From the NCBI GenBank assembly GCA_964468795.1, contig CAYXWL010000001.1, positions 232,246 through 296,245 on the forward strand: a stretch of 64,000 bases of DNA, written 5' to 3'. The notes below the pieces were generated by a model. That model made no database searches. It was given only the letters and a program-made list of their open reading frames with translations, and was not told where the DNA came from. The DNA is from an uncultured Candidatus Saccharibacteria bacterium. GTDB taxonomy: Bacteria > Patescibacteriota > Minisyncoccia > Phycocordibacterales > DATDWN01. Each line of letters starts with the position of its first letter. The stretch's first letter is position 1. A program made the position numbers and the translations under genes. This document shows, piece by piece, positions 30,849 to 33,719 of the stretch.

Positions 30849-31661
30849 TCACTTCTTCCGGGAGGACGCGAGACCGATGCGGTCGTTACGGTAGTCGTCG
30901 TGCCAGCAGTAGACGCCGAGACCCTTGGCATCGAAGAGGCCGACGCGGACGTGGTAGCCGTACGAGTCAAGACTCGATGTCCGGACGTAGATGTTCTCGA
31001 AGAGTCGGATACCACGAACCTCGTAGTAGGTCGTGATGAACCAGCTCATCTCGGCAGCGTTCGGAACCGTTTCCAACTTGGAGAGGAGCTTGTTCTGCTC
31101 TCCCCAGGTCTTCGAGGTTGAGTTCTTGACCGGCGTCTTCCGGATGGCGAGCCACCCGAAGGACGTCTTGTCCTCGCGAGCGAAGTTCTCGTTCTCGTAC
31201 CAACCACCCGACTTGGAGTAGAAGTGGTTGGACTTCACGGCTCGAACTTCGAGCAAGGACATCGCACTCGGAGATGCGGGCATTACGGCGTAGCCGTTTG
31301 CCTTGCACCACTCGAGCACGTCGAGTGACGGAACGGTCTCGGCGAGCTCTGCGAGTTGATCGTCGGTGTAGACCAGACCACGAGCCTTCGCCACTTCCTC
31401 TGGCGTGATAAAATCGACGCCGAGGATGACTTGAGCTTGCGTGTAGTCCGGAACCTTCACCGAGAAACGACGAACGATGTCTCGGACTGCGTCACGAGTG
31501 GCATCCATCGCTTCAGTACCACGGGAGATGAACTCGACACCAGCCTCATATGAACCGAGATACTTCTCGACCATAAGAGGAACCTGTGCCTGAAACATCT
31601 CCACAATGTGCTGAACCTGCTCCGACGTAGCCGGGGCGGTTTCAGATGTGATCTTTGTCAT
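30849..31661 (-). CDS. DGR variable (target) protein with C-terminal CLec-like VR
   Basis: Start trimmed to MTKITSETAP after GAAGGAG. C-terminus ..LDSYGYHVRVGLFDAKGLGVYCWHDDYRNDRIGLASSRKK is encoded by the VR. Confidence 0.85.
   Translation of the reverse strand: MTKITSETAPATSEQVQHIVEMFQAQVPLMVEKYLGSYEAGVEFISRGTEAMDATRDAVRDIVRRFSVKVPDYTQAQVILGVDFITPEEVAKARGLVYTDDQLAELAETVPSLDVLEWCKANGYAVMPASPSAMSLLEVRAVKSNHFYSKSGGWYENENFAREDKTSFGWLAIRKTPVKNSTSKTWGEQNKLLSKLETVPNAAEMSWFITTYYEVRGIRLFENIYVRTSSLDSYGYHVRVGLFDAKGLGVYCWHDDYRNDRIGLASSRKK
30858..30973 (-). repeat. DGR variable repeat (VR)
   Basis: 116 nt aligned by hand to the TR. 16 differences, every one at a TR adenine. Confidence 0.9.
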
Positions 31662-31799
31662 CACGATCTCCTTCACCTGTAAGTCCGATTCGCTCGGACG
31701 GTTGCGACTTGTCTCTGATTGAGACGAGTTTTTTAAGTCCAGAATAGGACCCAAAAAGCTCGTCTCAAGAAGTGAATCTATCAAAGAACTGACAGTAAT

Positions 31800-31829
31800 A
31801 GTATATCACATATTATAGCCATTTGTCAA
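31800..31829 (-). promoter_or_regulatory. promoter for the DGR target gene
   Basis: Minus strand TTGACA-18 nt-TATACT. GTTCTTT motif ~10 nt downstream. Confidence 0.45.
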
Positions 31830-32112
31830 TGTCTAGAAAATCTCTCAGGTAAGCCATATAATATGGGTATCTTGCTAATGTAGTTTGGGCTACGGCTCAA
31901 GTTCGCGAGATATCTCACCTAGTGAGACGCCAGAGTGCCAGTGGTTTACGGATCATGGCAGAGTGCGATTAAGGATAGAGAGAACTTCTTGCTTGGTTTC
32001 AGTAGAGGTGTTCATAAAGAACTGCTCTCGAATAAAATTCAGAGATAAGAGAATATAGATTCGAAAGAATAGTAACTCTCAAGTCTCGGTGACACAGATG
32101 GAACTAAGCAAT

Positions 32113-32228
32113 ATCTTGACTCGAACGGCAACCACGTCAACGTCGGCAACTTCGATGCCAAGGGTCTCAACGTCAACAACTGGAACGACGACAACCGTAA
32201 CGACAACATCGGTCTCGCGTCCTCCCGG
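32113..32228 (+). repeat. DGR template repeat (TR)
   Basis: Contains 11 AAC codons in the VR frame (LDSNGNHVNVGNFDAKGLNVNNWNDDNRNDNIGLASSR). On the opposite strand to the VR. Confidence 0.9.
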
Positions 32229-32246
32229 CAGTCATACCTATCCAAA

Positions 32247-32279
32247 GAAAATCCTGAGAGATCAGGGTTTTCTTTTTTT
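32247..32279 (+). terminator. bidirectional intrinsic terminator immediately after the TR and after avd
   Basis: aaaatCCTGAgagaTCAGGgttttcttttttt. Confidence 0.6.
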
Positions 32280-32628
32280 ACCTCTCTTTCGTTGACTTAA
32301 TCCACCCTCCGAGCATTCTGCCAATCTCATCTAAGTTAGCTTCAATGATCACATATTTCTTGGAATCAATTGCTCTGACATCTTTCATGAGACGGATGCA
32401 AATGCGAAGAAAATTTAATCTGACACTTGTTCTTTCAAGAGTTGGTAGTTTTTCTATTTTGCTTTGCTCACTTGCATACAAAATACCCTCAAGTACTTCA
32501 ATGAGAAGACTCTCACACTTTTGCCAAAGTGTGTATCGATCTTGCTTAGGAACAGACAAGCGAAGATTGTAAAATTCTTTATACAAATCGTACGTTTTTC
32601 TAAAAATTGGTATATCTAAGTCATTCAT
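32278..32628 (-). CDS. avd: four-helix-bundle protein, Avd-like DGR accessory protein
   Basis: 116 aa. Resembles the 23S-IVS/four-helix-bundle family (..DRYTLWQKCESLLIEVLEGILYA..). Adjacent to the DGR RT. Confidence 0.7.
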   Translation of the reverse strand: MNDLDIPIFRKTYDLYKEFYNLRLSVPKQDRYTLWQKCESLLIEVLEGILYASEQSKIEKLPTLERTSVRLNFLRICIRLMKDVRAIDSKKYVIIEANLDEIGRMLGGWIKSTKER

Positions 32629-33719
32629 ATGAAAATTTATAAGAATTTATATTGGTCAATAATTTCTCCTCAAGCACTATTTAAAGCTTGGGAGGTGTTT
32701 AAATCGGATAAGCGAAATAAGATTGATGTTTTGGAGTTTGAAAAACATCTTGAGAAAAATATTTTTGGTTTGTATAGGGATTTGAAAAATAAAAGATATA
32801 AACATGGAGCATATAAAGGATTTTGGATTCACGATCCAAAGATAAGAAGAATTCACAAGGCCACAGTTCGGGACAGAGTACTCCATCACGCAACTTTTTC
32901 TGTGCTTAATAAAATATTTGAACCAACTTTTATTACTGATTCCTATTCCTGTCGTATTAACAAAGGAACTCATAAGGGAGTGGAAGCCATAGCTAATATG
33001 CTTAGAATTGAGTCGAGAAATAATACTAGAACTTGTTATGCTTTGAAATGCGACGTGAGAAAATTCTTTGACTCTATTGATCACCAAGTACTCTTGGACA
33101 TTTTGAAAAGAAAAATCAAAGACACTAAAACGGTTTCTCTTCTTGAGGAGATTGTTAATAGCTACGATTCGTGCGGCACGTTGCGAGAGAGAGAGAGAGA
33201 GAGAGTAAAACGCTGTCGCTTTTTACTATGAATAACAAAGGGGTGCCTATCGGCAACCTGACTTCCCAGATTTTTGCCAATATTTATATGAATGAGTTTG
33301 ATCAATTTGTTAGGCATGAACTTAAAGTAAAATATTATGCAAGATATACAGATGATTTTGTCATTATATCAGAAAGCAAAGAATACCTTGAGGGACTATT
33401 GCCAAAATTGCAAAAATTTTTATCTGAAAAATTAAAACTTGAGCTACATCCAAATAAAATCACTATTCGTAAATACCACGAAGGAATAGATTTTCTAGGT
33501 TACGTCATATTTCCATATTACAAACTACTGAGAGCAAAAACGAAGAGGAGAATACTAAGAAATATACGAAAAAAGATGAGGAGTTTCCAAGAGGGACATC
33601 TCTCTAAAGAAAAACTAAACAGCAGTTTACAGTCTTATCTTGGAGTTTTGTCACATGCTGATACTTATGAGTTAACACAAAATCTCCAAAATCAATTTTG
33701 GTTTTGGATGAAGGAATAA
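32629..33719 (+). CDS. DGR reverse transcriptase, reading frame broken at a (GA)10 tract
   Basis: Two track ORFs (32629..33231, 33171..33719). Motifs RDRVLHHA, DVRKFFDSIDH, VPIGNLTSQIFANIYMNEFD (the DGR-type IGxxxSQ) and YARYTDDFVI. Confidence 0.85.
33185..33205 (+). repeat. dinucleotide simple-sequence repeat (GA)10+G inside the RT gene
   Basis: Counted directly. Removing one GA unit joins the two RT frames (..RERERE-SKTLSLFTMNNKGVPIGNLTSQ..). Confidence 0.9.

Follow-up and report, generated by a model that had tools for sequence, protein, structure and literature searches.

The locus described here raises the question of how the mutagenesis carried out by a diversity-generating retroelement (DGR) is restrained, such that useful variants are spared from immediate overwriting. 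It lies in a 64,000-nucleotide stretch of the genome of an uncultured Candidatus Saccharibacteria bacterium (assembly GCA_964468795.1, contig CAYXWL010000001.1, positions 232,246 to 296,245), which we call the window and whose own numbering is used throughout. The element consists of a target gene that contains a variable repeat (VR), a template repeat (TR), an avd accessory gene and a reverse transcriptase (RT) gene, and the RT gene is split between two reading frames at a perfect (GA)10 repeat. Judging from the reading frames, we lean slightly toward the view that slipped-strand phase variation of the RT gates mutagenesis by the DGR. The parts of the element on which the argument depends are these:

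32629..33184, + strand: 5' part of the RT gene, fingers and palm, RVT_1 profile positions 8-107 (profile and structure matches)
33185..33204, + strand: (GA)10 simple-sequence repeat splitting the RT frame; (GA)9 or (GA)12 would be in frame (sequence)
33205..33719, + strand: 3' part of the RT gene, SKTLSLFT..VPIGNLTSQ..RYTDDF..thumb, RVT_1 positions 115-205 (frame of open reading frame 33171-33719)
32278..32628, - strand: avd accessory gene, 116 aa (Pfam bAvd PF22296, E = 5.4e-17)
32113..32228, + strand: TR, with a single VR partner in the window (TR/VR alignment and repeat finder)
30858..30973, - strand: VR, the final 116 nt ahead of the ...RKK stop; three alleles in conspecific contigs
30858..30879, - strand: 22-nt GC-rich block identical in VR and TR, resembling the 3' boundary formed by an initiation of mutagenic homing (IMH) site (TR/VR alignment)
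30849..31661, - strand: DGR target gene, 270 aa from an ATG at 31661 preceded by AAGGAG; helical N-terminal part and C-terminal C-type-lectin (CLec)/FGE-like domain carrying the VR

The RT is encoded by two open reading frames (ORFs) in different frames, 32629-33231 and 33171-33719, which overlap over the (GA)10 tract, the sole dinucleotide repeat of at least six units in the window, and the RVT_1 profile is divided between them. With one GA unit removed, the two ORFs join into an RT of 362 aa, alignable over its full length with homologues of 59-76% identity attributed to Paceibacteria, Taylorbacteria and Nomurabacteria. On the 5' side of the tract the upstream frame encodes the conserved peptide ..SY.SCGTL, and on the 3' side the downstream frame encodes the conserved SKTLSLFT..GVPIGNLTSQ, which puts the frame junction inside the tract. 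The tract occupies a surface-loop insertion of about 22 aa that replaces residues 171-176 of the Bordetella RT (bRT), just ahead of the IGxLTSQ motif, and intact RT homologues possess (RE)0-5 at the same position. Read in any frame, (GA)n encodes (RE)n and contains no stop, and a slip of 2 nt re-pairs perfectly. The RT halves in the window contain neither stop codons nor other lesions. Since the frame is broken at (GA)10, the element as sequenced is predicted to be incapable of making a full-length RT by ordinary translation. The original prediction, made from the window alone, had described a complete DGR belonging to an established class; its completeness does not survive the split RT, and the statement that the element is not new holds for the DGR class and overlooks the repeat tract, which is the unusual feature.

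Two other ways of obtaining an RT from this gene were considered and set aside. A -1 frameshift at C-UUU-UUA (33217 onward) would come too late, because the conserved SKTLSLFT is encoded upstream of it and already in the downstream frame. Synthesis of the RT as two polypeptides with an internal restart is unlikely, as the nearest ATG is 23 nt past the tract and its use would lose conserved residues; no start codon is conserved across loci. A programmed frameshift or slippage site would have one conserved direction, a slippery motif and a stimulator, whereas both shift directions as well as in-frame states are found at this tract.

The locus is a real DGR with an adenine-specific TR/VR pair. 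Alignment of the TR with the reverse complement of the VR covers 116 positions, with 100 identities and 16 mismatches, and all 16 mismatches are at TR adenines, of which there are 32 in the 116 nt (hypergeometric P = 3.5e-11). The adenines are replaced by G (6), T (6) or C (4), and 10 of the 11 in-frame AAC codons are recoded in the VR, to TAC, CGC, CTC, GGC, TGC and CAC. The 3'-most 22 nt (CATCGGTCTCGCGTCCTCCCGG) are identical and GC-rich, and divergence starts directly downstream. These counts, codon changes and the identical terminal block are the same as those of the original prediction, and a check for mismatches at other bases found none inside the 116 nt, the nearest being at 32112. Position 32113 (A>G) adjoins that mismatch and may fall outside the true homology; without it the pair comprises 115 nt with 15 mismatches (P = 1.3e-10). 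An independent repeat finder recovered the pair as inverted repeat I1 (30855-30972 / 32114-32231, 118 nt, 86% complementary). No second VR partner for the TR was found within the 64-kb window. Directly 3' of the 22-nt IMH-like block there is only a weak 6-bp stem, and a strong hairpin farther downstream looks terminator-like.

The proteins earlier assigned from their sequences to Avd, to a DGR-type RT and to a CLec-like target are likewise what they had been taken for. The match of the Avd protein to PF22296 is above the curated cut-off, and proteins 80-96% identical to it are annotated as "diversity-generating retroelement protein Avd". The RT possesses the motifs VPIGNLTSQ and RYTDDF, and its best match among solved structures is bRT (8ub7_A, E = 1.9e-47). 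The VR lies in the C-type-lectin-like domain at the C-terminus of the target.

Contigs of the same species, originating from several samples, were gathered by look-ups with the target and Avd proteins; an exact-flank search for the window species in JGI metagenome contigs gave no matches. Among the conspecific contigs the tract has 9, 10 or 11 units between identical flanks. The RT is in frame with (GA)9 (L129 and L132; in L129 the translation runs across the tract into IGNLTSQIFANIYMNEF) and out of frame with (GA)10 (the window, L001 and L128) and (GA)11 (L003, L124 and L125). Aligned with the window over approximately 50 kb, the conspecific contigs show no differences outside the VR and the tract other than a single TR base and two singletons. 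Only the tract and the VR vary recurrently among these otherwise near-identical genomes. L001 aligns with the window over 20.9 kb, and the seven substitutions and one 3-nt deletion that separate the two all map to the VR, at TR-A positions or next to AAC repeats. The conspecific contigs have three VR alleles, which diverge chiefly in the 3' third of that region. The haplotypes GA10+VR1, GA11+VR1, GA10+VR2 and GA11+VR3 were all seen, so tract and VR mutate independently, as two hypermutable loci in an otherwise clonal background. VR differences at TR-A positions between near-identical genomes are, as far as sequence can tell, evidence of recent DGR activity.

Other observations on these contigs concern the same sites. 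One VR allele (30878-30902, compared with L001, L002 and L003) has an in-frame 3-nt deletion beside AACGACAAC repeats; together with the differences in the 3' third, this fits slippage on the template and retrohoming events that replace only part of the VR, anchored at its 3' end. The TR copy of L003 contains a single G>T (GATGCC to GATTCC, at approximately window position 32157) and its own VR keeps the G, which is either a TR polymorphism or a low-coverage error. Among the short contigs L126, L127, L130 and L131, several break at, inside or just upstream of (GA)n, and others break within the TR. The contig breaks and the differences between samples hint at within-sample heterogeneity at the tract and the TR.

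The tract is not peculiar to this species. We searched the GTDB species-representative genomes for (GA)6 or more followed 20-50 nt later by codons for IGNLT, and we drew a control sample of the same RT clade from metagenome contigs with the tract-blind motif PIGNLTSQ.FAN.YMNE; the genome and metagenome samples are unbiased as to frame and non-random as to taxonomy. A pure (GA)6-35 tract, 15-46 nt upstream of the IGNLT codons, is present in at least 119 species genomes, nearly all of them Patescibacteria from many lineages. A locus was regarded as evaluable if both RT halves were open (at least 140 and at least 100 codons). Among the matches listed, to which all frame counts from these two samples refer, both halves are open in 104 of 120 tract-bearing loci, and contig ends cut short most of the remainder. 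Of the 104 evaluable loci, 83 have an out-of-frame RT (48 with one shift and 35 with the other) and 21 an in-frame RT. Hand checking of a Wolfebacteria genome with (GA)35 (L004) confirmed two overlapping RT ORFs. In 817 kb of sequence flanking the tract-bearing loci no other dinucleotide simple-sequence repeat was found. An A-biased TR/VR pair accompanies the RT at 13 of 21 in-frame loci and at 52 of 82 out-of-frame ones. The frame states of the evaluable control loci, by tract length, are:

Control, no tract: 74 in frame, 1 out of frame
Control, tract of 8-11 nt: 2 in frame, 0 out of frame
Control, tract of at least 12 nt: 2 in frame, 16 out of frame

The frame state differs between loci with a tract of at least 12 nt and those with no tract (Fisher p = 7e-15), and such a tract is present in 18 of the 95 evaluable control loci, or approximately 19% of the RT clade. 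Pooling both samples gives 60 loci with shift 1, 39 with shift 2 and 23 in frame (12, 4 and 2 in the control sample); in-frame alleles, at 23 of 122 (19%), are rarer than the neutral one-third (p = 5e-4). No (GA)n tract was found at the RT position in viral contigs, where at least 120 RTs have the shorter motif form PIGNLTSQ.FAN. Other lineages were traced through identical Avd proteins. One of them has a tract fixed in frame at 19 nt in five contigs. Another has tracts of 13, 15, 25, 31 and 45 nt, up to 32 nt apart, and none of its 10 contigs is in frame; a third has tracts of 25 and 27 nt with none of seven contigs in frame. Tract lengths in some lineages (L260-L269; L095, L121, L111 and L099; L044 and L004) differ by multiples of 6 nt (13/25/31, 35/71), so that the out-of-frame state is kept. 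We considered whether such length steps (13/25/31 nt) signify a functional shifted frame; the counts are compatible with chance, given two equally likely OFF frames together with depletion of the ON frame.

The locus shares with contingency loci a perfect repeat inside a coding sequence whose unit number sets the frame (9 and 12 in, 10 and 11 out), unit-number polymorphism (9, 10 and 11 units) in otherwise identical backgrounds, and RT halves that stay open despite frequent OFF states. In the mechanism that we propose for phase variation, replication slippage would change n at high frequency, and the RT would switch stochastically and reversibly between ON (here, n divisible by 3) and OFF, taking adenine mutagenesis of the VR with it. 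ON cells would diversify the ligand-binding face of the target, and descendants slipping to OFF would freeze a successful VR variant. Such freezing would account for the predominance of OFF alleles in assembled consensus sequences (approximately 80%) alongside the continued turnover of VR alleles. The deficit of in-frame alleles below one-third would fit ON lineages overwriting their VR and OFF descendants preserving a successful variant. Whether (GA)n is, beyond this, an evolved and heritable gate on hypermutation, giving a two-tier system that explores while ON and locks in the winner by slipping OFF, we regard as evenly balanced.

Several points weigh against this interpretation. The ON and OFF states are deduced from DNA frames, and slippage of RNA polymerase or the ribosome could give some full-length RT from nominally OFF alleles. 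The two lineages in which 0 of 10 and 0 of 7 contigs are in frame offer no ON allele. Rather than an adaptation, the tract could be a mutational hazard that is tolerated and acts mechanistically in the same way, and an RT encoded outside the window could substitute in trans; within the 64-kb window no second RT was found. Coverage of several conspecific contigs is low (3-6x), and because certain ENA and Logan assemblies may come from common sequencing runs, independent samples are fewer than contigs.

The main rival to phase variation is a leaky gate, in which polymerase realignment or ribosomal slippage by +/-2 nt restores the frame in a fraction of products, so that the tract is an attenuator and every allele gives a low level of RT. 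We rate it as a possibility well short of even. It draws on the same properties of the tract, that (RE)n is stop-free in all frames and re-pairs perfectly after a 2-nt slip, and on the dominance of out-of-frame alleles in both directions (60 and 39 versus 23 in frame) with both RT halves open in evaluable loci. Different VR alleles are found among genomes in which the RT is always out of frame, and out-of-frame states occur only at tracts of at least 12 nt, approximately the length of the RNA:DNA hybrid. If the frame were irrelevant, however, about one-third of alleles should be in frame rather than the observed 19% (p = 5e-4), in-frame alleles in the same species make switching at the DNA level sufficient without recoding, and no significant stimulatory RNA structure is found beside the tract (z = -2.1). 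To our knowledge, efficient transcriptional slippage is established for homopolymer runs and not for dinucleotide repeats.

That a runaway microsatellite irreversibly inactivated the RT, leaving this and most tract-bearing DGRs as dead relics, we think unlikely. The RT is indeed out of frame in the window and in approximately 80% of tract-bearing loci, and sporadic frameshifted DGR RTs beside an intact TR/VR have been reported as recent inactivations (PMC3521204); however, decay is difficult to reconcile with RT halves without stops or other lesions, both open in 104 of 120 loci, with canonical A-biased TR/VR pairs equally frequent beside out-of-frame and in-frame RTs, with Avd conserved at 80-96% across the family, with in-frame alleles coexisting in the same species, or with a VR that has turned over between genomes without other differences in 20.9 kb. 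It is more improbable still that an in-frame tract was misread, with GA units gained or lost through errors of sequencing or assembly. Dinucleotide repeats do stutter in PCR-based libraries, coverage is only 3-6x in several conspecific contigs, and some contigs end at or just before the tract. Against such errors, the same out-of-frame alleles recur over independent assemblies and assemblers, with (GA)10 in contigs of 299 kb and 114 kb and (GA)11 in three assemblies; stutter rates fall far short of the out-of-frame proportion of approximately 80% seen over more than 120 genomes, all but one of the 75 tract-free RTs keep the frame, and alleles within one lineage are up to 32 nt apart. Least credible of all is an ordinary, complete and constitutively functional DGR, as first read from the window. 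The TR/VR pair, Avd, RT motifs and CLec-like target are all there, but the interrupted RT ORF, with RVT_1 split over two frames, already refutes this reading unless the (GA)10 call is wrong.

If phase variation is the explanation, a repeat prone to slippage within the RT gene would offer a simple mechanism, at the population level, for alternating mutagenesis, and CPR (candidate phyla radiation) bacteria would join the organisms that use contingency loci. Comparison of tract-length allele frequencies with VR diversity makes the question of gating testable from metagenomic reads. There are also consequences for annotation. DGR finders and gene callers split tract-bearing RTs into two "retron-type RT" fragments, activity surveys may score such DGRs as dead, pipelines that require an intact RT may have overlooked them or mis-scored them as inactive, and the prevalence of DGRs estimated for Patescibacteria may be skewed.

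The gene order at the locus is target(-) TR(+) avd(-) RT(+), and further candidate signals are placed between and beside the genes:

30764..30809, - strand: strong hairpin followed by a T-run, 3' of the target gene; likely a bidirectional terminator common to the recombinase gene (RNA fold)
31800..31829, - strand: promoter-like site for the target gene, TTGACA-18-TG-TATACT, 11/12 matches (consensus match only)
31789..31862, + strand: two promoter-like sites, 10/12 matches each, candidate starts of the TR RNA (consensus matches only)
32244..32275, + strand: 14-bp hairpin and T-run starting 15 nt past the TR, terminator-like 3' end of the TR RNA (fold, z = -3.9)

The start codons of avd and the RT gene are back to back (CATATG, 32626-32631), with zero intergenic DNA, as they are in L004. 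Since the starts abut, each promoter would be inside the coding sequence of the other gene, or transcription of the RT would continue from the TR RNA. The TR precedes the RT on the same strand in 59 of 60 related loci, in most cases with a similar hairpin after the TR. No Rfam family matched the TR RNA region at the gathering threshold.

A large serine recombinase gene (29426-30757, +), with Resolvase, Recombinase and Zn_ribbon_recom domains, directly adjoins the target gene, and a gene for tRNA-Ser(GCU) (33793-33883, -) is just past the RT. In a related lineage (L253-L256) a serine recombinase also adjoins the DGR, on the RT side. The DGR may be on or next to a mobile island. The target gene has a GC content at third codon positions of 0.71-0.73, versus 0.29-0.40 in the RT, avd and neighboring genes. 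Target GC exceeds RT GC by 9-31 points in 29 of 29 related loci (e.g., L016, L042, L095 and L118), the targets of which are just 27-70% identical. Adenine avoidance was rejected as the cause of the GC-rich target gene, as A and T are equally depleted at third positions (ratios 0.45 and 0.47).

Elsewhere in the window, two blocks of approximately 50% GC (18500-23000 and 25000-27800) stand out from a genome of approximately 38% GC. They are punctuated by AT-rich palindromes, TCCCATCAAAG..CTTTGATGGGA, at 18704, 22389, 25691, 26545 and 27179. The first contains three full-length matches to the type III hammerhead ribozyme (RF00008), at 20422-20476, 21314-21368 and 22031-22085, all on the minus strand, spaced by 892 and 717 nt in GC-rich, ORF-poor sequence. 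Their scores of 41.5-44.4 bits (E = 1e-6 to 1.5e-7) are below the gathering score of 48.5; the core CUGANGAG / CGAAAC / GUC is intact and the stems vary between copies. Apart from these three sub-gathering matches, no rRNA or other Rfam family was found in the two blocks, and the short ORFs within them gave no Pfam match except one to Sigma70_r4. The blocks could be a cassette array or a foreign island. The window also contains a tmRNA gene (43147-43536, +; Rfam 111.8 bits) with the predicted tag peptide VKNLSKGIASPFGNAFAFSPALA.

Among known systems, the DGR of Bordetella phage BPP-1 (bRT, Avd, TR and Mtd) shares with the window element the Avd and RT pair, bRT being the best solved-structure match, TR-to-VR changes specific to adenines and found mostly in AAC codons, a CLec-type protein that has the VR at its C-terminus and a GC-rich identical block at the 3' end of the VR. 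Unlike the BPP-1 element, the window DGR is cellular rather than phage-borne, has the order target(-) TR(+) avd(-) RT(+) with abutting avd and RT start codons, and has a terminator-like hairpin 15 nt past the TR instead of a long spacer. Its RT also has the insertion of approximately 22 aa, containing (GA)n/(RE)n, in place of bRT residues 171-176, and we know of no (GA)n-type repeat in bRT.

The window DGR belongs to the cellular DGR clade of CPR/Patescibacteria, for which a 2017 study by Paul et al. is reportedly also a source, and shares with it the host group, a cellular rather than viral setting and targets without a recognizable Pfam domain. The clade corresponds to "clade 2" of Roux et al. 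2021 (PMC8144416) and the "CPR set" of Wu et al. 2018 (PMC5758913). Neither survey mentions a repeat tract or frame-broken RTs in this clade, and Wu et al. compiled only "putatively functional" elements, a practice that would tend to exclude split RTs. We found no description of a repeat-gated DGR RT in the searchable full-text literature, and a prior mention in Paul et al. 2017 is possible. The DGR class is already known, and a microsatellite-gated mutator RT would apparently be its new feature.

Frameshift-truncated RTs beside an apparently intact TR/VR are also found among the inactivated DGRs of Schillinger et al. 2012 (PMC3521204). Those are isolated and unrelated lesions (a nonsense mutation, an insertion of an insertion sequence (IS) and a single frameshift), read as recent death, whereas tracts of the window type are the same repeat at the same site, with reversible length states, in well over 100 species. 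Polymerase-slippage rescue at poly(A) tracts and programmed recoding in dnaX and IS elements likewise combine a repeat-associated frame break in a conserved gene with a frame-neutral repeat; they involve homopolymers or heptameric slippery sites and one defined direction, and the window tract is a dinucleotide repeat, shifted in both directions and without a conserved stimulator.

The locus also resembles the simple-sequence repeat contingency loci and phasevarions of, for example, Haemophilus and Neisseria (mod, opa and lic), which have a perfect repeat of a short unit within the ORF, strains that vary in unit number and are otherwise identical, ON and OFF states set by the frame and an ORF kept intact though most isolates are OFF. 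Contingency loci of this kind gate surface antigens or methyltransferases in host-adapted pathogens. In the window, by contrast, the putatively gated gene would encode the mutator of a second, targeted system for generating diversity, and the hosts are ultra-small bacteria of the environment.

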